Of a stretch of DNA of 64,000 nt, positions 4,697 to 44,677 are shown piece by piece. The position numbers were made by a program, and so were the translations under genes. Under the pieces are notes generated by a model, which was not told the DNA's origin, made no database searches, and was given only the letters and a program-made list of their open reading frames with translations. Numbering within the stretch: position 1 is the stretch's first letter; the number at the start of each line of letters is the position of its first letter. Source of the stretch: Caldilineaceae bacterium (GTDB taxonomy: Bacteria; Chloroflexota; Anaerolineae; Caldilineales; Caldilineaceae); NCBI GenBank assembly GCA_965214715.1, contig OZ243971.1, positions 2,256,326 through 2,320,325 of the forward strand, read 5' to 3'.

Positions 4697-4800
4697 GAGC
4701 AAAAGGCGATTGTGGCAGCACTGGGAGAAGGCCAGCGATTTCGCGTGCAACCCCTACGAAATCTATAATCAAAGGGCCTTCATATGCGTCAAGACCAAGG

Positions 4801-7142: not shown

Positions 7143-8133
7143 TCAATGTGAAATGCCTATCATCTCAAAACATATACCAGGAGTATCAGCAAAATCAACA
7201 CCTAGGTTCTGTGCCCAATGTCGAGCCAAGTGATTGAGTTTGATCGAGTCACCGACACCGGCAACTTTGTCCCGCTGTTTTGCAGGACCAGGCCTGTCGC
7301 TATTCTCGGCCTGACTGATTGCATAGACTGCTTTGGCATATGTATACCAGACAAATCTCAAGCCAATGTGACCATCACAGGCCCATCTAACTTCAGTGGG
7401 GGATGATGCTTGTGCTACATCAAGCCAATGTGCAAATTGGCTTGCAAGGTTCTCGATAGTGTCCGCACTCAAGTTGCTATGCCTAGCCAAGGCCGCTTTC
7501 CAACAATCAGTGTTCCACAGAATTACAGAGGCTGAGAGTTCTATCGGTTCCCAATGGATGGTGCGACGCACAAGTGGCAGCTGACCCAACCGGTACGCAG
7601 CCAACCCCAGCGCACATGCGGTGCTGATTATCATTGGGAAGTTTTCCCGCAGACACTCCAGTGCTGTCTGTGCAATGCTGCCATCCAGCGAAAAGTCACT
7701 TAACGGTTTCCGAAAAACGTCAAAATCAAGCAAGTAATTTTCGATTGAGTGCCCGCGTGACCATACCAGTCTATCCATCTGACGCTGTGCACCCAAGGAA
7801 TCGACAATGGCATTGTCGATTCTGAATTCCCTGAATTCGCGGTCGACGAACCCAACGAATCTATCCCGAAATGGCGTGCCGGAGATCAATGCACTGACTT
7901 TTTCGACCTTCTCTCTATTGCCCTTCTCCCGGAGTTTCAGACTTTATGTATTCGGCAGTCCTGATTACTGCCTGTGACTGCGCAGCGTCGGGAAGACCCT
8001 TTGCTTCTCCCATGGCTTCAGAAAGGAGCATGAAGAATCTCTCGTCCTGACGCCCTTCCAACAAGATATGGGACTTCTGGGAAATCCGCACTTCAGTTGC
8101 GAACTCATCATAGGTTAACTGTAGGCCCGGCAT
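7143..8133 (-). pseudogene. Toprim/DUF4435-like nuclease (AriB-like), split by one frameshift near 7900-7940
   Basis: The N-fragment (8133..7915) has HILLEGRQDERFF. The C-fragment (open from about 7943 in another frame) has FVDREFREF and RGHSIENYLLD. I recall these as OLD/DUF4435 Toprim motifs. The two pieces are in different frames with no intact alternative. Confidence 0.6.
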
Positions 8134-8175
8134 TGTGCAGTACAGGCGGAAACAGCTGAATCCAACTCGCCTTCT

Positions 8176-9611
8176 TTAGTTGCTGACCAATTCGGAAATT
8201 GCGTTCACCGCTGATGGAGTCGACTCCGGGGATAATTCAATCATCCGCTCTTGATACTGGGCACCGATTATGGGTGAATGCGTACATACAATCAATTGTT
8301 TTGACGGGAGCTGCTTCTTCATGGCATCGATAATTTTGCGTTGCCAATCAATATGAAGTGACAGTTCGGGCTCATCTACAAGGATCGTGCTGCTCTTGTC
8401 AATGCGGGAGGCAGAGTAGATGAGTCCTGCAATCTGACGTTCCCCAGACGACAGTGTTTCCAGTGAGTTCAACTCGCCGTCACTGTGCCGGATCTGCAAT
8501 GAGGGTGTTGAATCAGTATCTTGCCGCAAAGCAGTCCCTAACTGCTTTCCTTCCAGAAAACAGTTGACTGCATCAATGTATGCACGAACTGCGTCAAACT
8601 CATGTATGAGGTTTTGGTAACGTTGATCAAGTATCTCTTCATATACACGCAGCACTCTGGTGGTCGTATCTTGCTCCTCCTGATTTAGCAGCTCCGTCGA
8701 ACCAAGCTGGGATTTCAGATCCTCGAATGTGGAATCACGGTCCAACAATCCGTACTCCTCTTGCGTTTGCTGGAGTTGTTCCAACATTTCCTCAATGCGC
8801 ATCCTGATGGTCTCTGGAGTTCTTGCATCTTGACCGGTCGGAATGGAATCCTGACTAATTGTTGCAAAAACTCTGTTGAAGGCTTCGGATAGAAGAGTTC
8901 TGTCGTCACGGGCCAGGCGGCTGACTGCCTTCTGTATATCTTGATCGAGAGTGCGTTGAATATCCCGAGGAGACGGGTAATCGATTGAAGGTACAAATTC
9001 GCCGAAAACCTCACGGGCAATTATGGTTTGGGAATCCAATTCTGCAGCCGCGCGGCGTGCAACATAAGGTTTGGCCAGTCGAGTTTGGGACCGGGCCTCT
9101 GCGAAAATCCGGGAATTCCGGAGACGCCCACTGCGGAGGAGGTCTGTGGGATCGATAAGGGACCAAGCCTCTTGCATGAAGCGAAAGGCTGGAAAATAGG
9201 TCGCCTTTATACTGTACTTTTTTTGTAGGACTCGATTAGCTCGACTGAAAAGTACCTTCGTGGCTCTATGCCATTGGACTCGAGAGGCAAGGCAGCAATC
9301 TGATCACCGTCTATTCGGAGTCTCACCGCGGAATCGCGGTCACGATCCAGTCTGCATGACTCATATTCGATGTATGGTCCGTCTGCAACATGCAGCTGGA
9401 TTGTCTTGAAAGACAATGCCGCAAATCGTTCCAGGTCCAGATTGGCCGCGTTCGTCAAAATATGGAGCAAGGTCGTTTTGCCAGAGCCGTTGACACCGTA
9501 AACGATATTGACTCCTTCAGAGAATGCTATGTCCAAGTCGAATTTCCCGTGGAGACCAACGACTTTTAGATGCTTCAGGTATTGGGACATATCTTCAGGA
9601 AGTGGACGCAT
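8176..9611 (-). pseudogene. ABC/SMC-type ATPase (AriA-like), split at an A7 run
   Basis: The N-fragment has Walker A GVNGSGKTTLLHIL. The C-fragment has LSSGERQ signature, ILVDEPELSLH Walker B and CTHSP H-loop. The frames differ by one nt at minus-strand AAAAAAA (9218-9224). Start is 9611 or 9590. Confidence 0.7.
9218..9224 (-). other. A7 run at the break point of the ATPase gene
   Basis: Zero frame reads TAC AAA AAA AGT ACA GTA TAA. The -1 frame reads AAG TAC AGT ATA AAG... and continues open into MQEAWSLIDP. Confidence 0.8.
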
Positions 9612-9997
9612 TATGCATTCAAAGCAAGCTCGCACTTCATTATAGGCTGGGTCCGCTATGGGCAAACGCGTGGGTGGGACATCGTGAGGACAACGACACA
9701 ATGGCCGCATCGGACAACCACAACGTGCCTAACCAAACAACCCATTGAAGCCCACGACTACCAAGACAAGAAGCGGCAACCGTCCGTGGGACTCGTACCG
9801 CCTGAAAACGACAGGGATTCGGCTACACTCAAGACTCTCACTGGACCCGCAGCTACAGTAGACTGGAAAATGGAACATACCTTCTTTGAGATGCCTACAG
9901 TGCCACTCCAGGTCCACGAGTGCATTAACCCCTATACCATTCAGACCGCACGAAAACAGTGGCTCTGTGCAGTGCAGCCAAGGCAATCGCAAAGTCA

Positions 9998-10300
9998 TCA
10001 AAAGCCCCGGATTTGCTCCCTGCAGGCCAGATTGCGGCCGGCCTTGAGACGCCGGTTTTCCATGCCCCAGTGACCGCAGAGGGCAGCCCGCAGGGAATTC
10101 GGCTCCCTCCGCCCGCAGGGTCTGCGTACTCTCTTTCCGGGTGCCCATGGCATCCAGCATGACGATGCAGCCCGCCAGCGGCGGGCGAGTCCAGACTCGC
10201 CACCCACCAGGCCAAGGGGACCTCCGGCCGTTGCGGATCCCGCATCTGCGAGACCCGATCGTAAGGTGTCGTGGGCAGGAATGCCATGCGGCAAGGCCAG
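9998..10300 (-). mobile_element. heavily deleted ISAs1-family transposase relic
   Basis: GIPAHDTL (compare GIPSHDTF), MLDAMGTRKE (compare DAMGCQ) and GHWGMEN (compare HWGIEN) are compressed into about 300 nt in mixed frames. Confidence 0.45.
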
Positions 10301-20160: not shown

Positions 20161-21741
20161 TCACTCCCGCACCGCAAATTCCGCTTGCCAGAGGGTCCGT
20201 CGTTCGGCGGGGAGCCATTGACCGACGCGCATGCGCACAATCTCGTACTCCGGCAGCGGAATGATCACAAGGCACTGCCCGTCGGCGTGCATCCCGCCCG
20301 CCTCCCGGAAACGAAAATCCCGATTGTCGAAGCCGTATGCCCGCCGCGCCCGGGGCAGGCTGTCCAGATCGGCCGGCACCAGGTGCAGGACGAACGGCGC
20401 CTCGGTATCCGCCGGCGCACACGGCTCCCGGAAGTAGATCAACCGGTTGTCGCGGTGATAGACCGCAAATGCGGCGCGGACAACCGGCACCTGGGCCGCG
20501 AGCGCCTGAGAGGTCCTCTCGATGAAAGCCGCCGCAGTCGGGCGCACCGCAAATTCCGCTTGCCAGAGGGGTGGCTCGCCGGAGCGCCGTTGGCCGACGC
20601 GCATGCGCACAATCTCGTACTTCGGCAGCGGGATGATCACAAGGCACTGCCCGTCGGTGTGCATACCGCCCGCCTCCCGGAAACGAAAGTCCCAATTGTC
20701 GAAGCCGTATGCCCGCCGCGCCCGGGGCAGGCTGTCCGGATCGGCCGGCACCAGGTGCAGGATGAACGGCGCCTCGGTATCTGCCGGCACACACGGCTCC
20801 TTGAAGTAGGTCAACCGGTTGTCAATGAGATAGACCGCAAATGCGGCGCGGACGACCGGCTCCTGGGCCGCGAGCGCCGAGATGAAAGCCGCCTCGGTCC
20901 GGATCCTGACATACTGAAACCCCATCAACCCGACACTGGCCACCACGACTCCCGCGCACACCGTCCGCCAGGCCGGCCCCGCGGGCGCCGTGTTCCGGCC
21001 GCCCAGCCCCAGCCCCAGTTCCAGCGCATAGCCCAGGCAGAGAAAACCGAACAGATACTCCTGCGCTTCATTGATCTTCCCCTGGTGGGGATTGTACTCG
21101 TTCACATAGGAGACCGCCAGCACCAGCAGCCCCGTGGTGGCGATGAGCATGAACCACCCGGGTTGTCGGGCCAGCAGCGTGTAGCAGGCCAGCAGCAGCA
21201 ACAGATGTTTCCCGCGCCTGAAAAGGAAGTCCGGATCCAAGGCAACAAACGGGATGTCGGGATTCGCAGAGTAGGCCACCGTACTCGGATAGTAGGCCAG
21301 CATCACCAGAAAGCCCAGCAGCAGGGTGGCGTACCAGACGGTGTTTCTCACTACATTATTACCTCTGGAACCAATGTTGTGCACGTTGAATTCGCCCTGG
21401 AAGTTCACCGCCTGCAGGAAACCGGGCGTCGCGAAGCCGAAGAGCCGTTGCCCCCAACTGATTTCCTCGCCCGCACCGAACACCAGGGCGAGGCCCCCCA
21501 GCACATAGACGCCGCGCCGTCCCAGGCCCCGCTCCCTCCCGGCGGCGAACAACAGGACGAGACCGGCCAGACCCAGCCAGACCGCAGTGAGATTCTCCAC
21601 CACATTGTCTTCCTGCACCAGCGCCCTGTATTGCGGCGCGTCGGCCGCGAGAAGATAGCCCAGGCCAAGGACGTTCAGACACAGGCCCAGATAGCCCAGG
21701 AGGGCAACTTGCCCCCCCCCCCCCCCATTATGCGCCACCAT
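20161..21741 (-). CDS. polytopic membrane protein (about 8 TM, GAGEEISWGQRLFGF loop) with two tandem C-terminal copies of the family domain (paralogue A)
   Basis: 526-aa intact frame starting ATG GTG GCG CAT AAT + G15. About 90% identical to the inverted copy at 22287..23936. The opposite-strand ORF 19801..21819 is a GC shadow. Confidence 0.8.
   Translation of the reverse strand: MVAHNGGGGGQVALLGYLGLCLNVLGLGYLLAADAPQYRALVQEDNVVENLTAVWLGLAGLVLLFAAGRERGLGRRGVYVLGGLALVFGAGEEISWGQRLFGFATPGFLQAVNFQGEFNVHNIGSRGNNVVRNTVWYATLLLGFLVMLAYYPSTVAYSANPDIPFVALDPDFLFRRGKHLLLLLACYTLLARQPGWFMLIATTGLLVLAVSYVNEYNPHQGKINEAQEYLFGFLCLGYALELGLGLGGRNTAPAGPAWRTVCAGVVVASVGLMGFQYVRIRTEAAFISALAAQEPVVRAAFAVYLIDNRLTYFKEPCVPADTEAPFILHLVPADPDSLPRARRAYGFDNWDFRFREAGGMHTDGQCLVIIPLPKYEIVRMRVGQRRSGEPPLWQAEFAVRPTAAAFIERTSQALAAQVPVVRAAFAVYHRDNRLIYFREPCAPADTEAPFVLHLVPADLDSLPRARRAYGFDNRDFRFREAGGMHADGQCLVIIPLPEYEIVRMRVGQWLPAERRTLWQAEFAVRE
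20164..20905 (-). repeat. in-gene tandem duplication, two units of about 375 bp (about 125 aa) encoding the C-terminal domain
   Basis: CGCACCGCAAATTCCGCTTGCCAGAG recurs at 20168 and 20543, and the units align throughout at roughly 90% identity. Confidence 0.85.
21712..21726 (-). repeat. C15 (G15 on the coding strand) homopolymer, codons 6-10 of paralogue A
   Basis: Counted directly from the sequence. Encodes GGGGG. Confidence 0.95.
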
Positions 21742-22100: not shown

Positions 22101-22286
22101 CTGGCATATACTGGAGGGCCGCGGCCCAGCGTCCGCGCTGCGGTGCCGGGAGTGGATGCCTCCACGGTATTGGACCGGTAGAACCGCGGGATGCCTCACC
22201 CCACAGGCGGGACCATGCAGAATGAATCACGGTACGCTCCCTGCGGAGCACCCGGGCGGGCCATGGGCAGAACATGGTGGCGCATA

Positions 22287-23936
22287 ATGGGGGGGGGGGG
22301 GGGGCAAGTTGCCCTCCTGGGCTATCTGGGCCTGTGTCTGAACGTCCTTGGCCTGGGCTATCTCTTCGCGGCCGACGCGCCGCAATACAGGATGCTGACG
22401 CAGGAAGACAGGGTGGTGGAGAATCTCACTGCGGTCTGGCTGGGTCTGGCCGGTCTCGTCCTGTTGTTCGCCGCCGGGAGGGAGCGGGGCCTGGGGCGGC
22501 GCGGCGTCTATGTGCTGGGGGGCCTCGCCCTGGTGTTCGGTGCGGGCGAGGAAATCAGTTGGGGGCAACGGCTCTTCGGCTTCGCGACGCCCGGTTTCCT
22601 GCAGGCGGTGAACTACCAGGACGAATTCAACGTGCACAACATCGTCATCGGTGCGCAGGATTGGAATAGAAGAGCCGTCTGGTACGCCACCCTGCTGCTG
22701 TGCACGGCCACCGGCGCCGCTTTCCTGTGCCGCAAGGATACCCTCTGCGGGCTCCCCTTGCCCTCCATGCCCCTGCTGCTGGGCTTTCTGGTGATGCTGG
22801 CCTACTATACGACTTCCCAAAGCGGATTTATTTTGGATCCGAACTTCCTTTTCATGCGCGGGAAACATCTGTTGCTGCTGCTGGCCTGCTACACGCTGTT
22901 TGCCCGACAACCCGGATGGTTCATGCTCATCGCCACCACGGTGGTGCTGGTGCTGGCGGTCTCGTATGTGAACCGGTACAACTCCCGGGCCATCGACCTT
23001 AACGCGATGGTGGAAGTGCAGGAGTATCTGTTCGGTTTTCTTTGCCTGGGCTATGCGCTGGAACTGGGGCTGGGGCCGGGCGGGCGGAACACGGCGCCCG
23101 CGGGTCTGGCCTGGCGGACGGTGTGCGCAGGAGTCGTGGTGGCCAGTGTCGGGTTGATGGGGTTTCAGTATGTCAGGATCCGGACTGAGGCGGCTTTCAT
23201 CGAGAGGACCTATCAGGCGCTCGCGGCCCAGGAGCCAGTCGTCCGCGCCGCATTTGCGGTCTATCTCCGCAAAAACCGGTTGACCTACTTCAAGGAGCCG
23301 TGTGTGCCGGCAGATACCGAGGCGCCGTTCATCCTGCATCTGGTGCCAGCTGATCTGGACAGCCTGCCCCGGGCGCGGCGGGCATACGGCTTCGACAATC
23401 GGGATTTTTACTTCCAGGGAGCGGGCGGTGTGCACGCCGACGGGAAGTGTTTTGTCATCATCCCGCTGCCGAAGTACGACATTGTGCGCATGCGCGTCGG
23501 CCAACGGCTCCCCGCCGAGCAACGGGCCCTCTGGCAAGCGGAATTTGCGGTGCGCCAGACTGCGGCGGCTTTCATCGAGAAGACATCTCAGGTGCTCGCG
23601 GCCCAGGTGCCGGTTGTCCGCGCCGCATTTGCGGTCTATCTCCGCGACAACCGGTTGATCTACTTCAAGGAGCCGTGTGCGCCGGCAGATACCGAGGCGC
23701 CGTTCGTCCTGCATCTGGTGCCGGCCGATCCGGACAGCCTGCCCAAGGCGCGGCGGGCATACGGCTTCGACAATCGGGATTTTCGTTTCCGGGAGGCGGG
23801 CGGGATGCACGCCGACGGGCAGTGCCTTGTGATCATCCCGCTGCCGAAGTACGAGATTGTGCGCATGCGCGTCGGCCAATGGCTCCCCGCCGAGCAACGG
23901 GCTCTCTGGCAAGCGGAATTTGCGGTGCGGGAGTGA
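22287..23936 (+). CDS. polytopic membrane protein with two C-terminal family domains (paralogue B)
   Basis: Intact frame. With G16 it is served by the ATG at 22287 (ATA-ATG-G15) or by in-frame ATGs back to 22191. The ATGGTG start used by paralogue A (22274) is out of frame here. Confidence 0.8.
   Translation: MGGGGGQVALLGYLGLCLNVLGLGYLFAADAPQYRMLTQEDRVVENLTAVWLGLAGLVLLFAAGRERGLGRRGVYVLGGLALVFGAGEEISWGQRLFGFATPGFLQAVNYQDEFNVHNIVIGAQDWNRRAVWYATLLLCTATGAAFLCRKDTLCGLPLPSMPLLLGFLVMLAYYTTSQSGFILDPNFLFMRGKHLLLLLACYTLFARQPGWFMLIATTVVLVLAVSYVNRYNSRAIDLNAMVEVQEYLFGFLCLGYALELGLGPGGRNTAPAGLAWRTVCAGVVVASVGLMGFQYVRIRTEAAFIERTYQALAAQEPVVRAAFAVYLRKNRLTYFKEPCVPADTEAPFILHLVPADLDSLPRARRAYGFDNRDFYFQGAGGVHADGKCFVIIPLPKYDIVRMRVGQRLPAEQRALWQAEFAVRQTAAAFIEKTSQVLAAQVPVVRAAFAVYLRDNRLIYFKEPCAPADTEAPFVLHLVPADPDSLPKARRAYGFDNRDFRFREAGGMHADGQCLVIIPLPKYEIVRMRVGQWLPAEQRALWQAEFAVRE
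22289..22304 (+). repeat. G16 homopolymer at the start of paralogue B
   Basis: Counted directly. One G longer than the mirror copy. Confidence 0.95.
23188..23933 (+). repeat. in-gene tandem duplication, two units of about 375 bp encoding the C-terminal domain
   Basis: AAFIERTYQALAAQEPVVRAAFAVY...AEFAVRQ is followed by TAAAFIEKTSQVLAAQVPVVRAAFAVY...AEFAVRE. Confidence 0.85.
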
Positions 23937-33411: not shown

Positions 33412-35070
33412 TTATTCGATCCACGCATTGCCTGCCATCAACTCGTCGTTGACGGTCCAATCCAGGCCATGCACATTGGACTGGCGGGCAAACAGCGTGT
33501 ACTTCCAGGAAAGCGGAATGTCGACGCAGGCATCCAGCATAATCTCGTTGACTTTTCGGAAGGCCTCGCGCCGGGTTTCCCGGTCAAACGTGGCACCGGC
33601 AATCTGCAGGTTTTCCACGTAGCCTTCCGGAAAGTCGCCGCGGGGGAAAATGGGACTGGAACGAGGACGATACGGGCTATTGTCAAACAGCCCCATCGGG
33701 TCCAGATGCTGTCTTCCCACAAAAGTAACATCCAGATCGAATACGGCACTGCCATCCGTCTCCGGTGTACCGAGGTGCCGCGGGCCATACGTGGCGCTGT
33801 CCAGCGGTTCGACATCGACTTCCACCCCTATCGTGGCCAGATCGGCCTGCAAGATGGTGCCGATGTCCGTGGTCTCGGGAAAAGCCTGGATCGTGATCGT
33901 ATTCAGGACCAGCTTGACTCCATCCTTGTCCCTGACACCATCGCCGTCGCTGTCCACCCAGCCCGCTTCGTCCAGCAAGGCCGCAGACTGTTCCAGATCG
34001 AAACTGTAGGCATCGGCCAGATCTTCGAAATAGGCCACGGAATAGTCGGGAAATGCCAGTACCGTGGCCCCGCCCACCCCGAACAAAGCCTGATCCACTA
34101 TAGCGTCGCGGTCAATGGCCCAACAAACGGCTTGGCGGACCCGCTTGTCGCTGAGAGCCCCCTCCGGCTGGTCGGGATCGGGCGGATTCACCGTGATGGA
34201 ATACAGCAGACCGCCTTGCCCGAACTCGACCTCAATGCCCGAGTCCAGCAGGCGCTGATAGTCCTTGGGCGGAACGGCGATGGCAGCATCTATGATGCCG
34301 GTTTCCAGCGCCGTTACCAAGGCTTCCAGATCATCGAACGGTTTGAAAGACACCTCGTCCAGATAGGGCCGACCCTCGTCCCAATAGTTTTCGTTGCGGG
34401 CGAAGGTCAGAATGTCGCCCGGGATCCATTCCTGCAACGCAAACGGTCCCGTGCCAATACAGGAATTGGCCAGGGAATCGAACGACTCGGGGGCCATGAT
34501 GCGCATCACGTTCAGGATGTCGAACATGTTGGGCGTGGGCGCGGAAAACTCGATCGTGACACTATGGTCCCCATGAGCCACGGCGCCCGTGACCGTCTGC
34601 ACCATGCCGTGCACATTGGAGCCTGTATCCGGAACCAGGGCCCGTTCAATGTTCTGCACCACATCGGCCGCCACGAAAGACCGCCCATTGTGCCAGACCA
34701 CATCGTCACGCAGGGTCAGCGTGACCGCGGTGCCGTCGTCGTTCGTCTCCCATGCCGTGGCCAAGCGCGGCAGAATGTTCAGTCTCTTGTCGTAGACAAT
34801 CAAGCTGTCATAGCACTGGTTCTGCATGGGATAGCTGACAAAACCGAGCGAAAACGCGTCAAAGTTAATAATGTCATCCGTAGTGCCCACGACCAGGGAG
34901 CCGCCTCTTTGGGGACCCCCTTCCATGGTCACGGCATCGGCTGCCGGAGCGGCACCGCTGGGCGGGGCCGGGGCGCAGGAGATACTGGCCACCGCCAGGA
35001 CCAGCAGCAAGGCCACCCACAAGCCCAGTCGAGTTATATACCTAGCACGGCAAAACATAGCCAACCTCAT
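33412..35070 (-). CDS. ABC transporter substrate-binding lipoprotein, family 5 (peptide/nickel type)
   Basis: Lipobox LAVASISC, 552 aa, family-5 SBP size and layout. First gene of the permease operon. Confidence 0.9.
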   Translation of the reverse strand: MRLAMFCRARYITRLGLWVALLLVLAVASISCAPAPPSGAAPAADAVTMEGGPQRGGSLVVGTTDDIINFDAFSLGFVSYPMQNQCYDSLIVYDKRLNILPRLATAWETNDDGTAVTLTLRDDVVWHNGRSFVAADVVQNIERALVPDTGSNVHGMVQTVTGAVAHGDHSVTIEFSAPTPNMFDILNVMRIMAPESFDSLANSCIGTGPFALQEWIPGDILTFARNENYWDEGRPYLDEVSFKPFDDLEALVTALETGIIDAAIAVPPKDYQRLLDSGIEVEFGQGGLLYSITVNPPDPDQPEGALSDKRVRQAVCWAIDRDAIVDQALFGVGGATVLAFPDYSVAYFEDLADAYSFDLEQSAALLDEAGWVDSDGDGVRDKDGVKLVLNTITIQAFPETTDIGTILQADLATIGVEVDVEPLDSATYGPRHLGTPETDGSAVFDLDVTFVGRQHLDPMGLFDNSPYRPRSSPIFPRGDFPEGYVENLQIAGATFDRETRREAFRKVNEIMLDACVDIPLSWKYTLFARQSNVHGLDWTVNDELMAGNAWIE

Positions 35071-35662
35071 TTCTGTTCAAGTCAAAGTCAAAACGCATCC
35101 GGTCAATACAACCCTCTCTCTGCGACCGGCCGCGCGGGCAGCCAAGCATACAGGGCAATAGGAAAAGGTGCACAGTGACAGACGAAGTTTCATTCTAACA
35201 CCTCCCTGATTCAAACGCCCTGCCTTCCCAGGCAATCGCCAGGTCACGAATTGAAGCCGCAAGGGACATACCGGAACAGGTGCCATACACAGCAAAAAGC
35301 CCATATGAATCCCAAAACGCCGGGAGGCTCCTGGCGGTGCTTGCGGTCGACATGCTCGGCCTCGCGGTCTGTGCCTGCATAGGCTGTCAATGCCATTGGT
35401 CAGCATCGCGGAGTTCAGACGTGATCTCCAAGCCGGGTTTGCAACCTGGCAGCTTTGCGACGAAATACCCGCACAAAATCGGGCAGGAAAAACAAATGCC
35501 TCCAGGCCGGTCATATTGCGGCTGGCCTGGAGGCAATCCTGCCTTTTTGACGACTTTGCGATGATTTGGGATTACTCGCAGTCAAATACCCTGACTTCCT
35601 GTTTTTAAGTGATAAAATTGGCATAAAATAACATAAACAGAAACAATATCAGGGAAAGTGGC

Positions 35663-36940
35663 ATGCTGATCGAATTTTCCGTAGCAAACTTCAAGTCCAT
35701 CAAGGAAGAGGCCTGCTTGAACATGACGGCCGGACCTGGAAGAGAGCACAGGAAAATACATCTGGTGGTGCCTACACTGACGGCGAGAAGTCAACCTTCC
35801 CCCTTGGTCCGTACGGCGGTGATTTTCGGCGCCAATGCAGCGGGAAAGTCAAATTTGCTGGATGCCTTGAGGGTCATGAAGAACATCGTCCGCACATCCA
35901 GCCAAGGTCCTGCGGAACTTCCCGTAATCCCCTTCAAGTTTGATTTTGACAGCAAGAACCAAAGCACTGTGTTTGAAGTCAAGTGTATTGTCCAGGGAAT
36001 CCGTTTTATCAATATGGTTTTAGTGTCACCAAGGACAGGGTGCATGACGAATGGCTCTTTGCCTGGCCGCGGGGAAGAGTGCAAACCTGGTTTGAACGCG
36101 ACGGTCCCCACTGGAAATTGGGAGACAAGCTGACCGGCGACAAGGAGCTCTGGAAACGCACTACCCGCCCGGATGCCTTGTTCCTTTTCCACGGCCGTGT
36201 CTCTGAACAGCGAACAGTTGCGGCCACTGTATGACTGGTTTCACCATACAGTGCAGTATCCCACACCCCACGGCTGGACAGATGCGCTCTCACTTAAATT
36301 CTCACTTAAATATTGTCAAGACGAGCGCAAGCAGGCAGTCATTGATTTCTTGCATTCTGCAGATCTGGGCATTGCAGACCTGCGCATTACAAAAAAAGAA
36401 TTTTCGCCTGACATGCTCCCTGCTACCATATCCGTGGAAATGAAGGAAGAACTGACAAGAGGACTGGCGAGCAAGATGATCGTGGAGGATCTTTTTCTAA
36501 GACATGACACGGGCCTTGGCTACTCCACGGAACTGGATATGAAAGCGGAGTCGGCCGGCACGCAAAAGATCTTTTCGCTGGCGGGTCCTTGGCTTGAGGG
36601 CTTAAGCAATGGAAATGTGCTTGTAATCGACGAATTGGACAACAGCCTGCATCCCCAGCTGGTCGCGTTTTTGGTGGAGCGGTTCCACGACCCGGCAGTG
36701 AATACAAAAGGAGCCCAGCTCATATTTTCCACTCACGACGCTGCCCTCCTGAGTCAGGACAGATTCCGCAGAGATCAGATCTGGTTTTGTGAACGCAACA
36801 CATGACAGGAAACCCATCTGTATCCCTTGACGGATTTCCGTCCTCGCAAGGATCTGGAAAATCTTGAGCGCTCCTGTCTGGCAGGGCGATACGGAGCTCT
36901 GCCTTACACGCGACCGACAACCGTCCTGCATAGCCATTGA
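35663..36940 (+). pseudogene. AAA_21/abortive-infection-type ATPase: two frameshifts and one in-frame TGA
   Basis: Walker A IFGANAAGKSNLLDAL, YQYGFSVTKDRVHDEWLF in a second frame, VLVIDELDNSLHP...IFSTHD back in the first frame. TGA at 36803-36805 precedes the conserved tail LAGRYGALPY. Confidence 0.75.
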
Positions 36941-36943
36941 ACT

Positions 36944-37108
36944 ATGGCGAGACGCCCACCCCGTCCCCAGAGCAGAAGGCGGCAACCAGTCCGCGAAGCA
37001 TACGCACGCGTCCTCATTCTCTGCGAAGGGAAGAAAACCGAGGTGACCTATTTCAATGATCTCGTGGCACATTACAGTCTGAGCACAGCCAGCATAATAA
37101 GAGTGTAA
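36944..37108 (+). pseudogene. RloB-like protein, N-terminal 54 codons only
   Basis: ARVLILCEGKKTEVTYFNDL matches the RloB-like (Toprim-type) N-terminal motif. The frame ends at ...ASIIRV*, where high-G+C DNA begins. Confidence 0.6.
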
Positions 37109-37153
37109 AATAGGGATACTCCGGTAGTCCGGGGTTGGCCTGGCACCTATCCG

Positions 37154-37230
37154 GGGCGGATAGCTCAGTTGGTTAGAGCACTTCGTTTACACCGAAGGGG
37201 CCGGGGGTTCAAGTCCCTCTCTGCCCACCA
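37154..37230 (+). tRNA. tRNA-Val (anticodon TAC), CCA encoded
   Basis: Acceptor GGGCGGA/TCTGCCC, D stem GCTC/GAGC, anticodon stem CTTCG/CGAAG with loop TTTACAC, T arm GGGGG-TTCAAGT-CCCTC, then A-CCA. Confidence 0.9.
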
Positions 37231-37641
37231 GGCCATACACAAGCCAGCACCTTCGCGTCCAGACTCAAGTTAGGGGGGCCGGACTGAGCGCTTCCCCTGC
37301 ACTACTCCCGAATGTCCCCGTCATGCGGGGGAAGCTTTGATCTCCACTCTGCGCCCGCAGAATGTCTGCAGGGCTTCCTTCCCAAGTCGGCGGCGCGGCC
37401 GGGAAATTCAGAAATCCAGTCACGAACACGTACACTGTCGTATAGCCTGCATATACGTAGTGCCAGGCGCAACGATCAGCCATGAAGCCAAAGCGGACCT
37501 TACCATGGACGCCGAGTTGCCAAGCGGTATGCCTACGCAAACAGGCGCTCAGGGAGGCAGTGGAAAAGGGCCGCAGGCAAAGTCTGACATGAGTGCACCG
37601 CATCGTCTTTGGCGTTTATTTGCGTCCATATATTCTGATGA

Positions 37642-37652
37642 GGGGGGGGGGG
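37642..37652 (+). repeat. G11 homopolymer immediately after an ATG (37638), 100 nt upstream of the annotated start of paralogue C
   Basis: Counted directly. Context CTG ATG A G11 ATATGCGC. Confidence 0.95.
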
Positions 37653-37752
37653 ATATGCGCTCTCCCCGGCTGCACAATGCCCTGTTCGTCCTGTTTGTGG
37701 GCAGCATTCTGGTGTACAGACGCCGGCCAGCGGTCGCCACCCCGGACGGGAT

Positions 37753-39942
37753 ATGGCGCTGGGCCTGGCCTGCGTACCCTGGCTGGCCCTGCTGGGCTGG
37801 ATGACCGCCCTGACCTGGTTTCTGACGGATGATGCCTTCATCAGTTTCCGGTACGTGCGCAACCTGCTGGAAGGCCACGGTCTCGTCTTCAACCCCGGCG
37901 AGCGCGTCGAGGGGTACTCCAACTTTCTGTGGATCCTGGAACTGGCCGCCATCTGGCGGGTGGGGGGCGTGGAGCCCGAAGTTGCATCCCGGTGGCTGTC
38001 GGTCGTCTGCACCGTGGGCACCCTCGGCACCCTGCTGTGGTGGATGGCGCACCAGCCTGCGGTGGGACACCGCGGGCTGGTGATCTGGATGGCGCTGGGA
38101 CTGGTGTGCAGCAGCGCGACGTTCGCCGTGTGGACCTCGGGAGGCGGCCTGGAAACGCGGCAGTTCAGCCTGTTTGTGGTGGTGGCCGTGGTGTGCCTGG
38201 GCCTCTACCGTCACCACCCCGCGGGGCTGCTGGCCGCGTCGCTCAGTCTGGCGGGGGCGGCCCTGACCCGGCCCGAGGGGCCGCTGCTGGCTCTCTGCTG
38301 TTTTGGCTGGTTCCTCGGCCAACGGATGGCGGTGGCCGGCCGGGAGGGGCTGCACCGGGAGGGCCGGCGGGCCCTCCTCTGTCTGGTCGGACCGTGCGTG
38401 GCCCTGGTCGGGGCCCATTTCCTGTTCCGGTATGCGTACTATGGCGAGTGGCTGCCCAACACCTACCATGCCAAGCACGTCCGGGCGTGGTACGAGTCCG
38501 GCTTCCGCTACCTGTGGGCGGCGGCCCTGGAGACGGGGCTGTACCTGTGGCTGCCCCTGGCCTACATGGCCGCGCGGGCGCAGTGGCGCCAGCACCGGGA
38601 TGGCACGTTCGCGCTGGGGCTGGGGCTGGTGGGTACGCACATGGCCTATGTGATGCACATGGGGGGCGACCATTTCGAGTACCGTCCGCTGGACTTCTAC
38701 TGGCCCCTGCTGGCCTTCCCCGCCGCCACGGGTCTGGCGGGCCTGGCCGCGCGGATTGTGACCCGGGACCCGGGGCGGCCCCGCGCGCCCTTCCGGCGTT
38801 GGGGGGGGAGTGTGGACACAGGCGCCCGGGCCATGATGCTGATGCTCTTCGCGCCGGTCTGGTTCTATGCCAGTGCCCTGCAGGGGCTCCTGTTATATGA
38901 GGGGAGCCGGATCCATGAGTACATTCCGAGACTGCACATTGAGCTCGATCATGCAAATGCCCGGTGGTTACGGGTCGCCCCCGGCATGCCCATGCTGACC
39001 GCGGTTTCCAACGATCTGCGCCGCTTGATGGCGGTGCATAAGGTCGCCTCCCCTTTCACGCTACACCGCGCGTTCGCCAACCAGCAGATCCGAAGATGGA
39101 AGCCATACTACGTGCATATGGAGAGGGGCGTGATGCCGGATGATGCCCTGATGGCCGGCGGTGCCCTCGGCATTCGCTTCTACTACCTGCCGGACCTGGC
39201 GGTCATTGATCTCCACGGCTTGACCGACGCGACGATCGCGCGCCATCCGGTCACGATCCCCAACCACCAGCGCGCCATGGCCCATGACCGCAGCCCACCG
39301 GCCGGGTACCTGGAGGCCCGGGGCGTCAATTTCACGGTATACCCGGCGGCGGCCAGCGCCTCGGCCGCGTTGCGCCGCGCGGAGTACGCCCTGCCCGTGG
39401 GACCCGACCTGTGGATGCCGTTCGATGCCCCGGAGCGACAGTGGGTCCTCGATCGCTTTGCCCGCCAGAACCTGGTGACCTATATATGCCTGACAGGCCC
39501 TCCGGACCCGGCCGCGGGGAGCGCGTGGGGTGTGGACTGTGCGCCAGAGGACCGGATCGTGTGGGCCGGGGCGGACGCCTGGCGATCCCGTCTGCTCCGG
39601 GACCGCCGGCCCGTCATCCAGTCCGCCTGGGACGTGTATCACCTGGGCGACCGTCTGGTCTACGTCAGGGAACCCTGCGGACCGGCAGATGTGGCTGCCT
39701 CCCCCTTCTTCCTGCATGTGGTCCCGGTCCATCCCCAGGACCTCCCCGTCCCGCGCCGGTCCTATGGCTTTGACAACCTTGACTTCCACTTCCCGCAATA
39801 CGGCGTGATGTTCCGCGGATGGTGCCTGGCGGAGGTCCCGCTCCCGGCCTACCGGATCCGGAGCCTCCGCACCGGCCAGTATGTACGCCGGGAGGACAGT
39901 TTCCAGCATGTCTGGGAAGGCGAATTCCGCCATGTCCCATAG
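37753..39942 (+). CDS. GT-C-like polytopic membrane protein (DDAFISFRY...NPGERVEGYSNFLW loop) with one C-terminal family domain (paralogue C)
   Basis: 729-aa intact frame from the internal ATG at 37753. The frame stays open upstream to the TGA at 37639-37641. 96-97% identical to the next copy by eye. Glycosyltransferase assignment rests on a recalled motif only. Confidence 0.8.
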   Translation: MALGLACVPWLALLGWMTALTWFLTDDAFISFRYVRNLLEGHGLVFNPGERVEGYSNFLWILELAAIWRVGGVEPEVASRWLSVVCTVGTLGTLLWWMAHQPAVGHRGLVIWMALGLVCSSATFAVWTSGGGLETRQFSLFVVVAVVCLGLYRHHPAGLLAASLSLAGAALTRPEGPLLALCCFGWFLGQRMAVAGREGLHREGRRALLCLVGPCVALVGAHFLFRYAYYGEWLPNTYHAKHVRAWYESGFRYLWAAALETGLYLWLPLAYMAARAQWRQHRDGTFALGLGLVGTHMAYVMHMGGDHFEYRPLDFYWPLLAFPAATGLAGLAARIVTRDPGRPRAPFRRWGGSVDTGARAMMLMLFAPVWFYASALQGLLLYEGSRIHEYIPRLHIELDHANARWLRVAPGMPMLTAVSNDLRRLMAVHKVASPFTLHRAFANQQIRRWKPYYVHMERGVMPDDALMAGGALGIRFYYLPDLAVIDLHGLTDATIARHPVTIPNHQRAMAHDRSPPAGYLEARGVNFTVYPAAASASAALRRAEYALPVGPDLWMPFDAPERQWVLDRFARQNLVTYICLTGPPDPAAGSAWGVDCAPEDRIVWAGADAWRSRLLRDRRPVIQSAWDVYHLGDRLVYVREPCGPADVAASPFFLHVVPVHPQDLPVPRRSYGFDNLDFHFPQYGVMFRGWCLAEVPLPAYRIRSLRTGQYVRREDSFQHVWEGEFRHVP

Positions 39943-42188
39943 CCAGCGAGGCGTACAGACGCCGACCAGCGGTCGCCACCCCGGACGGGGCCTGGTGCTG
40001 GGCCTGGCCTGCGTACCCTGGCTGGCCCTGCTGGGCTGGATGACCGCCCTGACCTGGTTTCTGACCGATGATGCCTTCATCAGCTTCCGGTACGTGCGCA
40101 ACCTGCTGGAAGGCCACGGTCTCGTCTTCAACCCCGGCGAGCGCGTCGAGGGGTACTCCAACTTTCTGTGGATCCTGGAACTGGCCGCCATCTGGCGGGT
40201 GGGGGGTGTGGGGCCCGAAGTTGCGTCCCGGTGGCTGTCGGTCGTCTGCACCGTGGGCACCCTCGGCACCCTGCTGTGGTGGATGGCGCGCCAGCCCGCG
40301 GTGCCCCACCGCAGGCTGGTGACCTGGATGGCGCTGGGACTGGTGTGCAGCAGCGCGACGTTCGCCGTGTGGACCTCGGGGGGCGGCCTGGAAACGCGGC
40401 AGTTCAGCCTGTTTGTGGTGGTGGCCGTGGTGTGCCTGGGCCTCTACCGGCACCACCCCGCGGGGCTGCTGGCCGCGTCGCTCAGTCTGGCGGGGGCGGC
40501 CCTGACCCGGCCCGAGGGGCCGCTGCTGGCTCTCTGCTGTTTTGGCTGGTTCCTCGGCCAACGGATGGCGGTGGCCGGCCGGGAGGGGCTGCACCGGGAG
40601 GGCTGGCGGGCCCTCCTCTGTCTGGTTGGACCGTGCGTGGCCCTGGTCGGGGCCCATTTCCTGTTCCGGTATGCGTACTATGGCGAGTGGCTGCCCAACA
40701 CCTACCATGCCAAGCACGTCCGGGCGTGGTACGAGTCCGGCTTCCGCTACCTGTGGGCGGCGGCCCTGGAGACGGGGCTGTACCTGTGGCTGCCCCTGGC
40801 CTACATGGCCGCGCGGGCGCAGTGGCGCCAGCACCGGGATGGCACGTTCGCGCTGGTGCTGCTTCTGCTTGGTACGCACATGGCGTATGTGATGCACATG
40901 GGGGGCGACCATTTCGAGTACCGTCCGCTGGACTTCTACTGGCCCCTGCTGGCCTTCCCCGCCGCCACGGGTCTGGCGGGCCTGGCCGCGCGGATTGTGA
41001 CCCGGGACCCGGGGCGGCCCCGCGCGCCCTTCCGGCGTTGGGGGGGGAGTGTGGACACAGGCACCCGGGCCATGATGCTGATGCTCTTCGCGCCGGTCTG
41101 GTTCTATGCCAGTGCCCTGCAGGGGCTCCTGTTATATGAGGGGAGCCGGATCCATGAGTACATTCCGAGACTGCACATTGAGCTCGATCATGCAAATGCC
41201 CGGTGGTTACGGGTCGCCCCCGGCATGCCCATGCTGACTGCGGTTTCCAACGATCTGCGCCGCCTGATGGCGGCGCATCAGGTCGCCGCCCCTTTCACGC
41301 TACACCGCGCGTTGGCCAACCAGCAGATCCGAAGATGGAAGCCATACTACGTGCATATGGAGAGGGGCGTGATGCCAGATGATGCCCTGATGGCCGGCGG
41401 TGCCCTCGGCATTCGCTTCTACTACCTGCCGGACCTGGCGGCCATTGATCGGTTCGGCTTGACCGACGCGACGATCGCGCGCCATCCGGTCACGACCCCC
41501 AACCACCAGCGCAGGATGGCCCATGACCGCAGCCCACCGGCCGGGTACCTGGAGGCCCGGGGCGTCAATATCACGGTATACCCGGCGGCGGCCAGCGCCT
41601 CGGCCGCGTTGCGCCGCGCGGAGTACGCCCTGTCCGTGGGGCCCGACCTGTGGATGCCGTTCGATGCCCCGGAGCGACAGTGGGTCCTCGATCGCTTTGC
41701 CCGCCAGAACCTGGTGACCTATATATGCCTGACAGGCCCTCCGGACCCGGCCGCGGGGAGCGCGTGGGGCGTGGACTGTGCACCTGAGGACCGCATCGTG
41801 TGGTCCGGGGCGGACGCCTGGCGGTCCCGTCTGCTCCGGGACCGCCGGCCCGTCATCCAGTCCGCCTGGGACGTGTATCACCTGGGCGACCGTCTGGTCT
41901 ACGTCAGGGAACCCTGCGGACCGGCAGATGTGGCTACCCCCCCCCCCATTCTTCCTGCATGTGGTCCCGGTCCACCCCCAGGACCTCCCTGCCCCGCGCC
42001 GGGCCTATGGCTTTGACAACCGCGACTTCCGCTTCCCGCAATACGGCATGATGTTCCCCGGGGGGTGCCTGGCGGAGGTCCCGCTCCCGGCCTACCGGAT
42101 CCGGAGCCTCCGCACCGGCCAGTATGTACGCCGGGAGGACGACGGTTTCCAGCATGTCTGGGAAGGCGAATTCCGCCCTGCCCCATAG
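39932..42188 (+). pseudogene. GT-C-like membrane protein, paralogue D, frame broken at a C11 run (phase-OFF state or pseudogene)
   Basis: ATG 39932 overlaps the stop of paralogue C (ATGTCCCATAG). The frame runs to 42016. The C-terminal domain (FFLHVVPVHPQDLPAPRRAYGFDNRDF...EGEFRPAP*) continues in the +1 frame to 42188. Confidence 0.75.
41937..41947 (+). repeat. C11 homopolymer inside paralogue D
   Basis: GCT A C11 A TTC TTC CTG, compared with GCT GCC TCC CCC TTC TTC CTG in paralogue C. Confidence 0.95.
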
Positions 42189-42259
42189 GCAGCGAGGAGG
42201 AAGGAAGCCGGCCAGCGGTCGCCATCCCGGACGGGGCCTGGCGCTGGGCCTGGCCTGCG

Positions 42260-42596
42260 GGCCCTGGGAGGTGGTGCACGGCGGTCCTGCACCCAAAGCG
42301 CTGGTGCAAAAGGCCAGGCAATTGCGCAAGCAGGAAACCCGCCGGGGAGAACAATACGACAGAGTCTATTGCGTTTTTGATCGCGACGACCATGAAAGCT
42401 TTGAGGCCGCCAGTGCCTTCCTGATTATTGCAAAGGGATGCAGGGACTGTTCAAGACCCTCAACAGCAGCCTGGAAAGGGCCCTGCGGAATGCCGTCAAC
42501 GTGGCAAAAGACGCAAGCACAACAGGTGATCCCAACCCCTCCACGGAAGTCCACGAGCTGGTGAGATTTCTGCAGTCCCTTAAACCTGCTGCATGA
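42260..42596 (+). pseudogene. RloB-like protein, remaining fragments (internal deletion and frameshift)
   Basis: EVVHGGPAPKALVQKARQL...YDRVYCVFDRDDHESFEAA, then in another frame (42438..42596) ...DPNPSTEVHELVRFLQSL*, resembling the RloB-like middle and C-terminal motifs. Confidence 0.55.
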
Positions 42597-42940
42597 AGAA
42601 AAATACACTCATCGAAAACAGGAATTTGCGGTATTCCTGTAAAGGGGGACAACCCAGTTCCTCTGTTTCAGAAGAATGGCGGGACCGGAGTTGTTTTGGC
42701 CAGGACCTGTGACAAATCCACGGCATCAGGGGATTGATACAGGGTTGCTGCACCTACAATCATGGCTGTAGGTCTGCGACTGACCGGTGCCATGGCACCC
42801 ACCTGGAAGCCGTGCAGAGCGCAAGCTGTTCCCTGACAGGGACAGATACGTTAATATCGGCATCAGGTATGGCTGATATGAAATCACATGATTGATAACA
42901 AAGCGCGACTTTGTGCCAAGTCGCGCCAGGAGGAAGACCT

Positions 42941-44677
42941 ATGCAGACCACACGACCCCCTGTTTGCAGCCGGGGCTACCTCATATCCACCGATCACTAT
43001 CTGGCCACGATGGCGGGATTCAAAATCCTGGAACAGGGCGGCAACGCCGCAGACGCAGGCGTGGCTGCCGGTCTATGCCTCAATGTAGTAGTGCCGGAAT
43101 CTGCCCACTTTGGCGGTGTGGCACCCATCATTTACGGATCTGGCGACGGCGGGCCTGTCGAAACCATCAGCGGCCTGGGTCGCTGGCCCAAGGCGGCCAG
43201 CATCCGGCACTTCATGCAGCATCACGGCGGGGACATGCCCGAGGGCATTCCGCGGACGGTCACGCCGGCAGCACCCGATGCATGGCTGAGCGCCTTGGCC
43301 CGATGGGGCACCATGACCTTTGAGGAGGTCGTACAGCCCGCCCTGAAACTGGCGCAGGACGGCCGGCCTGTAGATGACCGATTTCACCGGGCCCTGCAGG
43401 CACCGTCCATTCGGGCCTATCCCACCACTGCTGCCACCTTTCTGCCTGCCGGAGTGCCCCTGCCACCGGGCCAACTCTTCATGCAGCCCGACTTGGCCAA
43501 CACGTTCCAGCGCATGATCGAGGCCGAGCACCGGAGTTGGGGCAACCGTAGGCAAGGAATTCGAGGGGCCCGCGACCTGATCTACCGGGGCGAGATTGCA
43601 CGGGAAATCGCTGCCTTTCATGCGCAGGCAGGGAGCCTGTTGACCTATGAGGATCTGTGCCATTTCACAGTGCTGGTGGAAGCGCCGGAGATTATTCGCT
43701 ACCGAGATCTCGATGTGCTCAGCTGTGGTCCCTGGTGCCAGGGGCCTTCGCTCCTGATGGCGCTGCGCATATTGGAGCATCTGGAACTCAGGACAATGGG
43801 GCACAATTCCGCCGATTATCTGCATGTGCTGCTGGAGACGCTCAAGTTGGTATTTGCAGACCGTGAGGCCTATTTTGGGGATCCCGGTTTTGTCAGGGTG
43901 CCTATGCAGGGCCTGCTGCATCCAGACTATGCACAGACGCGCCGGAGTCGCATTGATCGGCACGCAGCGGCGCCCCGCATGCCTGCCTGCGGGGAACCTG
44001 GACCTTTCGAGTCCAATCAGTCCGGTCCTCACGACCGCGTATCGCAGGGTGTCGCAGATTCTCCCCTTGACGCGCGGAAAACCCCATGGGAGAGCGACAC
44101 CAGTTATCTTTGCGTGGTTGACGGGGAAGGCAATGCCTTCTCCGCCACACCTTCCGACGGCATTGGAGGGGGGGCTGTCGTACCCGGTCTAGGCTTCCCT
44201 ATTTCACATAGGGGAACCCAAAGCTGGCTGGATCCAGACCATGCTTCTGCTCTTCAACCCGGAAAACGACCTCGACTGACCCCCAATCCGGCCTTGGTCA
44301 TGCAGAACGGTCAGCCATACATGCCGTTTGGGTGTCCCGGGGGCGATGCACAGGTACAGGGCATGCTCCAGGTTTTTCTGAACGTCGTGGAGTTCGGCAT
44401 GGATATTCAAAGCGCGATTGAGGCGCCGCGGGTCATCTCGCACAGTTTCCCCAATTCATTTTGGCCCCATATCAGCCTGGACGGTGCAGTTACGGTGGAG
44501 ACGCGCATCCCCGAAAACGTCAGGTCCAACCTGCAAGGCAAGGGACACATCTTGAATGAAGATGGAGACTGGAGTGGGCAGGTGAGCCGAGTGTGCGCCA
44601 TCACCATCGATCCCAAGTCGCGATTGCGCACAGGAGGTGCGGATCCTCGCACCACTGCATATGCAGCAGGATGGTGA
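42941..44677 (+). CDS. ggt: gamma-glutamyltranspeptidase family protein
   Basis: Autoprocessing/catalytic Thr context DTSYLCVVDGEGNAFSATPS and C-terminal GADPRTTAYAAGW. RBS AGGAGGAAG before ATG 42941. Confidence 0.9.
   Translation: MQTTRPPVCSRGYLISTDHYLATMAGFKILEQGGNAADAGVAAGLCLNVVVPESAHFGGVAPIIYGSGDGGPVETISGLGRWPKAASIRHFMQHHGGDMPEGIPRTVTPAAPDAWLSALARWGTMTFEEVVQPALKLAQDGRPVDDRFHRALQAPSIRAYPTTAATFLPAGVPLPPGQLFMQPDLANTFQRMIEAEHRSWGNRRQGIRGARDLIYRGEIAREIAAFHAQAGSLLTYEDLCHFTVLVEAPEIIRYRDLDVLSCGPWCQGPSLLMALRILEHLELRTMGHNSADYLHVLLETLKLVFADREAYFGDPGFVRVPMQGLLHPDYAQTRRSRIDRHAAAPRMPACGEPGPFESNQSGPHDRVSQGVADSPLDARKTPWESDTSYLCVVDGEGNAFSATPSDGIGGGAVVPGLGFPISHRGTQSWLDPDHASALQPGKRPRLTPNPALVMQNGQPYMPFGCPGGDAQVQGMLQVFLNVVEFGMDIQSAIEAPRVISHSFPNSFWPHISLDGAVTVETRIPENVRSNLQGKGHILNEDGDWSGQVSRVCAITIDPKSRLRTGGADPRTTAYAAGW

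Follow-up and report, generated by a model that had tools for sequence, protein, structure and literature searches.

Upstream of a membrane-enzyme gene in a Caldilineaceae bacterium, an ATG codon runs into eleven consecutive guanines that leave it out of frame with that gene. To which gene does this tract belong, and what could a change in its length switch? The locus lies in a 64,000-nucleotide (nt) stretch of contig OZ243971.1 (positions 2,256,326 to 2,320,325 of the forward strand), which we call the window and number from its first letter. The gene, here named C, is the first unit of a tandem array, and an initial annotation had proposed the ATG at 37638 as its authentic start, with G11 as the OFF state of a switch of its own. 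Our main result for the tract is a correction to this proposal: the tract is a fusion relic, not C's own start. It very probably originated as a contingency tract in a gene of another family, here called F, and would have reached C on a fused 5' fragment. The features on which the argument turns are the following.

37589..37716, plus strand: 5' fragment of an F-family gene in frame 2, MSAPHRLWRLFASIYSDEGGGDMRSPRLHNALFVLFVGSILVY, identified by profile and DNA matches.
37638..37640, plus strand: ATG in frame 0, sharing the frame of C only at G10 or G13 and that of the F-type helix at G9, G12 or G15 (compare the F-family protein P0159, MRGGGGGVTLSARLHNALF).
37642..37652, plus strand: G11 homopolymer, a candidate slipped-strand (hypermutable) tract.
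37655..37804, plus strand: 49-codon open reading frame (ORF) from the ATG after the tract, frame 2, MRSPRLHNALFVLFVGSILVY..., with its stop at 37802-37804, overlapping the start of C.
37706..37725, plus strand: putative site of the recombination that joined the F-type fragment to the C-type unit, with GG(C/T)(C/G)TAC..CGCCG in both partners.
37711..37752, plus strand: 14 C-type N-tail codons, GVQTPASGRHPGRD, frame 1, out of reach of any canonical start at G11.
37753..39942, plus strand: gene C, 729 amino acids (aa), identical to P0001.

The local sequence is as it had been described. The ATG at 37638-37640 is followed by A 37641 and then by an unbroken G11 at 37642-37652, the stretch 37630-37661 reading ATATTCTG-ATG-A-G11-ATATGCGCT, and a TGA at 37639-37641 overlaps the ATG. 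A further TGA, at 37636-37638, precedes it in the frame of C (frame 1), which is open back to this TGA TGA pair and contains no ATG, GTG or TTG upstream of 37753; ATG 37638 itself lies in frame 0. We edited the tract in silico to lengths from G8 to G15 and read out the resulting ORFs. From ATG 37638, G11 gives 64 aa ending at 37832, G12 gives 55 aa beginning MRGGGDMRSPRLHNALFVLFVGSILVY (a peptide of more than 50 aa had been foreseen), and G10 or G13 fuse the ATG to C, as had also been calculated, giving 767 or 768 aa that begin MRGGGYALSPAAQCPVRPVCGQHSGVQTPASGRHPGRDMALGLAC. The initial annotation overlooked a second upstream ATG, at 37589, which is fused to C at G9, G12 and G15 (783-785 aa). 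The lengths fall into three classes.

G8, G11, G14: ATG 37589 gives a relic peptide of 70-72 aa (at G11, 71 aa with its stop at 37804); ATG 37638 gives 63-65 aa; C is read only from ATG 37753.
G9, G12, G15: ATG 37589 gives a fusion to C of 783-785 aa; ATG 37638 gives a relic helix peptide; C is extended.
G10, G13: ATG 37589 gives a peptide of 80-81 aa; ATG 37638 gives a fusion to C of 767-768 aa; C is extended.

At every length, the ORF from ATG 37655 gives the same 49-aa relic peptide, and two F-family proteins (P0164 and P0204) have their annotated start, MTLSSRL.., at this position. Tracts of this kind are far more frequent in the window than composition predicts: the pattern G11 has 13 matches in 4 tracts, against a mean of 0.24 in dinucleotide shuffles, and none of 100 shuffles reaches 13. 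All 4 long tracts lie in or beside genes from one set of related membrane-protein families.

What identifies the tract as F-type is the reading of 37589-37716 in frame 2. F proteins are ~800 aa long, carry the motif DDAFYYFQIARNLAEGKFSTFDG, have C's C-terminal module in common with it and show no Pfam match; their typical N-terminus is M..GRWRALAARCLNP-G(1-5)-VTLSSRLRNALFVLFIGGILAYG. The window fragment is collinear with this leader, the position of the glycines and G tract included. It holds ATG 37589, a cytoplasmic N-tail (MSAPHRLWRLFASIYSDEGGGDMRSPRLHNALF), the G tract (translated as GGG) and the first half of the first membrane helix, reads MSAPHRLWRLFASIYSDE-GGG-DMRSPRLHNALFVLFVGSILVY, and spans the family pattern ..RWRAL..Gn..S.RL.NALFVLF.GGILAY. 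over 37589-37716. When a profile of 35 long F N-tails was run against the six-frame translation of the window, it gave one alignment in one frame, from MSAP to ILVY across the tract, with E = 1.6e-10 for the aligned stretch and 9.5e-11 for the whole segment; the next best match had E = 0.2. A helix-only profile from 9 N-termini found the same segment (E = 3.9e-8; next best, 2.2). When the 43-aa frame-2 peptide itself served as the query, no candidate had enough words in common with it.

The DNA agrees with the profiles. Post-tract sequence matches the 5' ends of F-family or arylsulfotransferase-like genes from other phyla (loci L005, L003, L045, L006 and L072); the first membrane helix of F type is also used by arylsulfotransferase-domain genes, and locus L028 has a G10 placed 8 nt before the same TCC.CCCGG. 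Among 120 F proteins, a glycine-rich spot at which indels cluster coincides with the position of the window tract, with variants such as ..CLNP-GG-VTLSS.., ..NEL-GGG-TLSS.., MRGGGGGVTLSARLHNALF, MSRGGGITLSS.. and MGGGGYSS..., and some of these proteins are without the entire glycine-rich stretch. By homology, then, the tract is the family-typical N-tail tract of an F-type gene, and G11 is in frame for that gene. Because 37589-37716 is F-type in frame 2, YALSPAAQCPVRPVCGQHS results from reading helix codons out of frame. Unlike an F-family gene, the fragment comprises no more than the first ~43 codons: the F body with its DDAFYYFQIARNLAEGKFSTFDG motif is absent from the window, and frame 2 enters C-type sequence and stops at 37804. 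We also tried the frame-2 stretch past the junction (AVATPDGIWR) as a second F N-tail and rejected it (E = 87). The idea that GGGATATGCGCT, behind the tract, was copied by templating from GGGATATGGCGCT, at the start of C, was dropped as well, because the two are no more alike, in statistical terms, than chance allows.

About 17 of the 120 F proteins (P0125-P0244) are annotated to start only past the first helix, at MLARFDL.., which suggests that those assemblies have the N-tail and first helix out of frame, or that gene calling overlooked them. Gene callers place starts past the tracts in C, in P0066 and in these ~17 F proteins, and chimeric 5' ends and possible phase states are thereby hidden.

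On the other side of the junction the sequence is C-type. Homology between C and the second unit of the array begins exactly at 37711, the G of GVQTP, with unrelated sequence upstream (self-BLAST and alignment); the F-type side of the junction was read from the L005 DNA. The units are these.

39908..42016, plus strand: gene D, the second unit, identical to P0123, with the family's own start MSGKANSAMSHSQRGVQTP kept.
42196..42267, plus strand: third unit, truncated to 72 nt from the 5' end of the gene and adjoining the remainder of an RloB-like gene.

C and D belong to a tandem array at 37711-42267 of 2.03 units of ~2239 nt with 96% identity, 37711-40021 matching 39950-42267 at 96% in the self-BLAST. 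The tail segment is, as had been reported, present in D and in the truncated third unit. It had been argued from this that the tail is coding, and paralogues from the same genome support the conclusion: they start MSGKANSAM(S/P)H(S/R)QRGVQ(T/K)P..GR..GRGLVLGLACVPW. The agreement among C, D and unit 3 does not serve as independent evidence of constraint, because they are recent DNA repeats with 96% identity. More distant homologues start MLHSRRGVQ.. or ..SRRGVP.. / ..RRGVP. The tail has a median length of 19 residues in the 112 homologues whose first helix could be recognised, and just 3 of them are without Lys or Arg before the helix: one 4-residue call, C and the orthologue of C. For this family, the annotated start of C, which leaves out the tail, is atypical. 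The native C-type 5' end, MSGKANSAM.HSQRGVQ..GR, is thus represented at C by its tail codons without the start. ATG 37753 itself arose from clustered changes, giving GAT ATG GCG where the paralogues have GGC CTG GTG, and it is kept both in the window and in the orthologue.

This orthologue, at locus L001, comes from a Caldilineaceae metagenome-assembled genome (MAG; OZ243985.1) that is syntenic with the window, with flanks 96-99% identical. L001 carries a single unit together with the 72-nt partial unit known from the window, and its left junction is the same as in the window. One segment tells the two apart.

37630..37661, plus strand: 32-nt segment ATATTCTGATGAG11ATATGCGCT, absent from L001 and holding ATG 37638, the tract and ATG 37655.

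Conservation of the upstream ATG and tract in orthologues had been put forward as a check on the original proposal, and its lack as part of what would refute it. Both are absent from L001, which speaks against the proposal only in part: the flanks are conserved, with 2 substitutions in ~630 nt upstream outside the indel (pairwise alignment, ~99.7% identical), and a different upstream ATG stands in frame with the gene. This is L001 ATG 3869, equivalent to window ATG 37589, and it opens the reading MSAPHRLWRLFASISPAAQCPVRPVCGQHSGVQTPASGRHPRRD-MVLVLAC... The fixed state in L001 corresponds to the ATG 37589 fusion, not to one from ATG 37638. Because the window is collinear with most F N-tails, we read the 32 nt as a deletion in L001 and the window as ancestral, and reject an insertion in the window.

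Comparison of the two genomes gave a further observation. Window 36956-37710 and L001 3236-3958 differ by 2 substitutions in ~720 nt plus the 32-nt indel, and synonymous divergence is 0.10 in C and 0.43 in a GGT-like gene at 42911-44677. The block 36956-37710 could be a recent recombination tract or be under some unexplained constraint.

We propose the following history for the 5' end of C. The G11 run would once have lain in the first ~43 codons of an F gene, the rest of which was lost. Recombination at the short shared sequence around 37706-37725 would have joined the F fragment to the C-type N-tail, out of frame, and removed C's own start (MSGKANSAM-HSQR). Homology places the junction and gives the F origin; the mechanism of the fusion is what we infer. 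At G11, C would be made only as a tail-less protein from ATG 37753, and ATG 37589 and ATG 37655 would yield relic peptides of 71 and 49 aa ending at 37804. One G more (or G9, or G15) would join C to ATG 37589, and one G fewer (or G13) would join it to ATG 37638. In the sister genome, a 32-nt deletion would have taken out the tract and left the ATG 37589-type fusion permanently in frame. The tract would then be a contingency tract inherited from a lost gene, and at most a three-phase switch now.

Is the tract still prone to slip? Slippage-driven phase variation is plausible because related tracts differ in length between copies and genomes. Within the window, genes A (20161-21741, minus strand) and B (22191-23936, plus strand) are inverted duplicates that carry G15 (21712-21726) and G16 (22289-22304) just past the start. 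A is in frame from ATGGTG..AAT-G15, and B keeps its frame only when read from an ATG overlapping the tract (AAT+G) or from ATGs further upstream. Each of the two genes has two copies of C's C-terminal module. At one site in that module, C has CCTCCCCC (~39697-39705, in frame), D has C11 (41937-41947, +1) and L001 has C12 (5949-5960, +2). D and the L001 gene lose their last ~80 residues as sequenced because C11 and C12 are out of frame; C10 restores ..PPPFFLHVVPVH.. in D. In-frame G8 tracts occur at 38801-38808 in C and 41040-41047 in D (..FRRWGGSVD..), where L001 has a 6-nt deletion and a paralogue from the same genome (P0121) is frameshifted directly after the tract (..FRRWGGGHRHPGHD..).

The pattern extends to other genomes. 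L079 (~1552-1563) has G7AG4 with an upstream ATG in frame, ATG..MQILRGGGELYPP.., and the protein MQILRGGGELYPPVVQRA.., and L007, with flanks otherwise identical, has an out-of-frame G15 (3943-3957) and a downstream GTG as its annotated start. A homology of the L007 leader to the window leader or to the F type was considered and dropped, its alignment scores being no higher than the top background matches. Two tandem paralogues in L010 differ as C12 in frame versus C10 out of frame (2934-2945 and 7529-7538), the L049 gene is split at a G10 (4648-4657), L014 has two in-frame G9 tracts in N-tails, and L070 has a G10 6 nt before an ATG. More long G/C tracts (10-17 nt) lie in adjoining membrane-protein genes (L039 5080-5096; L059 3507-3522 and 9912-9926), and among the long tracts of L010, L039, L049 and L059 some are in frame and others split the gene. 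In family genes, the 330 nt that precede the DDAF motif show a ~4-fold enrichment of G/C runs of at least 8 nt. The initial annotation was right to see an M-polyGly start as a family design, since the order start codon, polyG, tail, first helix recurs in L014 (two cases), P0060, P0088/L079 and P0159 (MRGGGGGVTLSARLHNALF). This family-wide pattern reaches beyond the one tract at C in interest. As for that tract, it is a long pure mononucleotide run in a 5' coding region, and length changes made in silico switch the frame between a start codon and an intact gene. Tract and frame logic match the slipped-strand switching class, for which population polymorphism and expression switching at this locus are candidate properties. 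An exact scan of a metagenome collection for the conserved left flank gave 0 matches and hence no extra tract alleles.

Taken together, these observations lead us to think that the G11 run is probably a slippage-prone relic on an F-type 5' fragment fused out of frame onto C. That it now works as an accidental three-phase switch on C's N-terminus, and perhaps on its yield, and is used by the organism, we put forward tentatively and at somewhat less than an even chance. Several points count against this explanation. The part of the fragment upstream of the tract (MSAPHRLWRLFASIYSDE) scores 7.5 bits above the other frames and reaches only E = 2 alone; because the homology upstream of the tract is no more than suggestive, a 1-in-3 chance underlies part of the case for an F-type frame at G11. 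Restoration of the frame by the L001 deletion could be luck at the same odds, and a one-base consensus error in the homopolymer would change the phase assignment. The promoter scan found no sigma-70-like promoter near the tract. Finally, the ratio of nonsynonymous to synonymous substitution rates (dN/dS) in C is 0.44 against L001 and 0.50 against D, compared with 0.11 in the neighbouring GGT-like gene; by these values C is under moderate constraint, and they also fit relaxed constraint on a decaying gene.

The last point also counts for an alternative reading, in which the tract has no present role and C either is made only from ATG 37753 or is decaying. Apart from dN/dS, such an inert relic would fit a chimera that is out of frame and is common to an orthologue that deleted the tract, the frame-breaking tracts in the C-terminal modules of D and of the L001 gene, and the broken state of the neighbouring AAA_21 and RloB genes. 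However, C retains all 729 codons of its ORF, the conserved DDAFISFRY motif included, its dN/dS lies clearly under 1, ATG 37753 was made by clustered changes and kept in both genomes, and the L001 deletion restores an in-frame upstream start. We regard an inert tract as a real alternative, only slightly less likely than a switch in use. It is less likely still that the true length is G10 or G12, with C constitutively fused and the OFF state produced artificially by the assembly consensus. Of the three length classes, only that of G11 leaves C without a fusion, the C11 of D and the C12 of L001 also break their gene's frame, the related records are chromosome-level MAGs, and long-read consensus is weakest in long homopolymers. 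Against a miscount, the F-type fragment reads in frame through G11 when started at ATG 37589, a single long minus-strand ORF (3512-4750) runs across a C8 at 4126-4133, and C and D keep their frame through the G8 tracts at 38801 and 41040. From genome to genome the tracts differ by more than one base, with interrupted forms among them (L079 and L007, 12 versus 17 nt; CCTCCCCC versus C11 versus C12), which is real sequence variation and more than a matter of miscounting.

Two other accounts appear improbable to us. In the first, ATG 37638 would be the authentic start of C and the tract a phase-variable switch of C's own, G11 being OFF and G10 or G13 ON. The frame arithmetic of this model holds, the tail-less start of C is atypical, C-type relatives with start, polyG, tail and helix in frame exist (the L014 pair, P0060 and P0088/L079), and P0159 gives a precedent for M-R-polyGly. 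But the 58 nt that separate tract and tail encode the F-type helix in another frame and are part of the segment that the N-tail profile recovers in frame 2 at E = 1.6e-10. The orthologue keeps the gene without this ATG and tract, the native C-type start in this genome is MSGKANSAM.., and inspection of the sequence before ATG 37638 found nothing like a Shine-Dalgarno sequence. We give equally little weight to a non-coding role, in which the G run is a Shine-Dalgarno mimic or a promoter or leader element whose length tunes strength instead of frame, driving translation of the ATG 37655 ORF or tuning transcription into C. GGGGG can pair with the CCUCC anti-Shine-Dalgarno sequence; the run ends 2 nt before ATG 37655, the L070 G10 lies 6 nt before its ATG, and L049 and genes A and B have CATAAT directly before their tracts. 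Set against this are the negative promoter scan near the tract and the clear translation of the tract as Gly codons in the F family.

What protein would such a switch affect? The N-terminal ~270 residues of C resemble GT-C fold glycosyltransferases. Residues 3-270 align with the mycobacterial arabinofuranosyltransferase AftB (PDB 9dlf; E = 1.7e-5, by sequence similarity only and very distantly), including the aspartate motif past the first helix. Unlike AftB, C has a different C-terminal half and a family-specific C-terminal module of ~90 aa. The NCBIfam model NF041481 scores C at 32.6 bits against a cutoff of 1050, a Pfam search found no domain in it, and an exact-protein context look-up for C and for the paralogue P0124 found nothing on record. 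C's family has more than 2300 proteins. It occurs, at 50-62% identity, in MAGs labelled Caldilineaceae, Dehalococcoidia, Latescibacterota, Nitrospirales, Binatia, Acidobacteriota, Alpha- and Gammaproteobacteria and others, a mix that would resemble sponge-associated communities.

Phase-variable glycosyltransferase genes with poly-G or poly-C tracts include lgtA, lgtC, lgtD and lgtG of Neisseria, cgtA, wlaN and further poly-G contingency genes of Campylobacter jejuni, and futA and futB of Helicobacter pylori. The locus described here is like them in that a gene of envelope glycosyltransferase type carries a long G/C homopolymer in its 5' coding part, in the way one-base slippage shifts the frame between the start and the enzyme body, and in the differing tract lengths of paralogues and orthologues. 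In contrast to those genes, C would have its tract from another gene fused to its 5' end, the case is known from sequence alone, the hosts are uncultured Chloroflexota (Caldilineaceae) MAGs, and the enzymes are polytopic and GT-C-like instead of soluble Leloir-type GT-A or GT-B enzymes. In Haemophilus influenzae, lic1A and lic2A have tetranucleotide repeats and alternative start codons in different frames, with measured expression. The two upstream ATGs of C (37589 and 37638) likewise lie in two frames, so that the repeat number would pick the start, one length class picking none, as a three-state system; A and B, with G15 and G16, would make a similar use of alternative starts. The difference from lic1A and lic2A is that the tract here is mononucleotide and its effect was followed in silico.

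A literature search found no description of phase variation or homopolymeric tracts in sponge symbionts, in these organisms or in these gene families. If the tracts slip, uncultured bacteria would vary envelope-modifying enzymes stochastically, a strategy known mainly from host-adapted pathogens, through gene families that have no Pfam annotation and many copies per genome. Again if they slip, amino-acid identity of 55-62% across phyla points to the horizontal spread of a surface-variation toolkit. A bolder version, which we think unlikely, is that the polyG leader is a portable phase-variation module, exchanged by recombination and horizontal transfer among envelope gene families (AftB-like C, F, A/B and arylsulfotransferase types) in MAGs of more than 8 phyla, and that it gives C a true three-state switch here.

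The ~90-aa C-terminal module, ..IRSDWDVYL..L.Y.KE.C...D....FFLH..PVD..DLP..R..YGFDNLDF.., is common to four architectures, namely the AftB-like C, F and A/B types and a protein with an arylsulfotransferase domain (L028 1848-3908; Pfam PF05935, E = 2.7e-23). Genes that bear it form tandem clusters in MAGs from many phyla (loci L001-L078) at 50-62% identity, which suggests horizontal spread of these genes.

One further feature lies 5' of the tract.

37154..37230, plus strand: tRNA-Val (anticodon TAC), found by ARAGORN and by the Rfam tRNA model at 69.9 bits.

Rfam models run on 36900-37900 found this tRNA alone, and a weak terminator-like hairpin at 37611-37626 was the sole result near the tract in the promoter and terminator scan. 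The array, together with ~600 nt that include the tRNA-Val, sits between the halves of the split RloB-like gene (35663-37108 and 42270-42564), of which Pfam positions 1-24 lie before the tRNA and 41-81 after the array. The adjoining AAA_21 ATPase gene is frameshifted in the window and intact in L001 (423 aa), and the C-like gene of L079 likewise has an AAA_15/AAA_21 ATPase gene directly upstream, along with a gene of 207 aa. The G+C content of the array is 68-70%, against 52-60% around it. Over the window as a whole, G+C falls to 48-53% at 7001-10000 and 35001-37000, compared with ~60% elsewhere, and the second dip is the AAA_21/RloB region.

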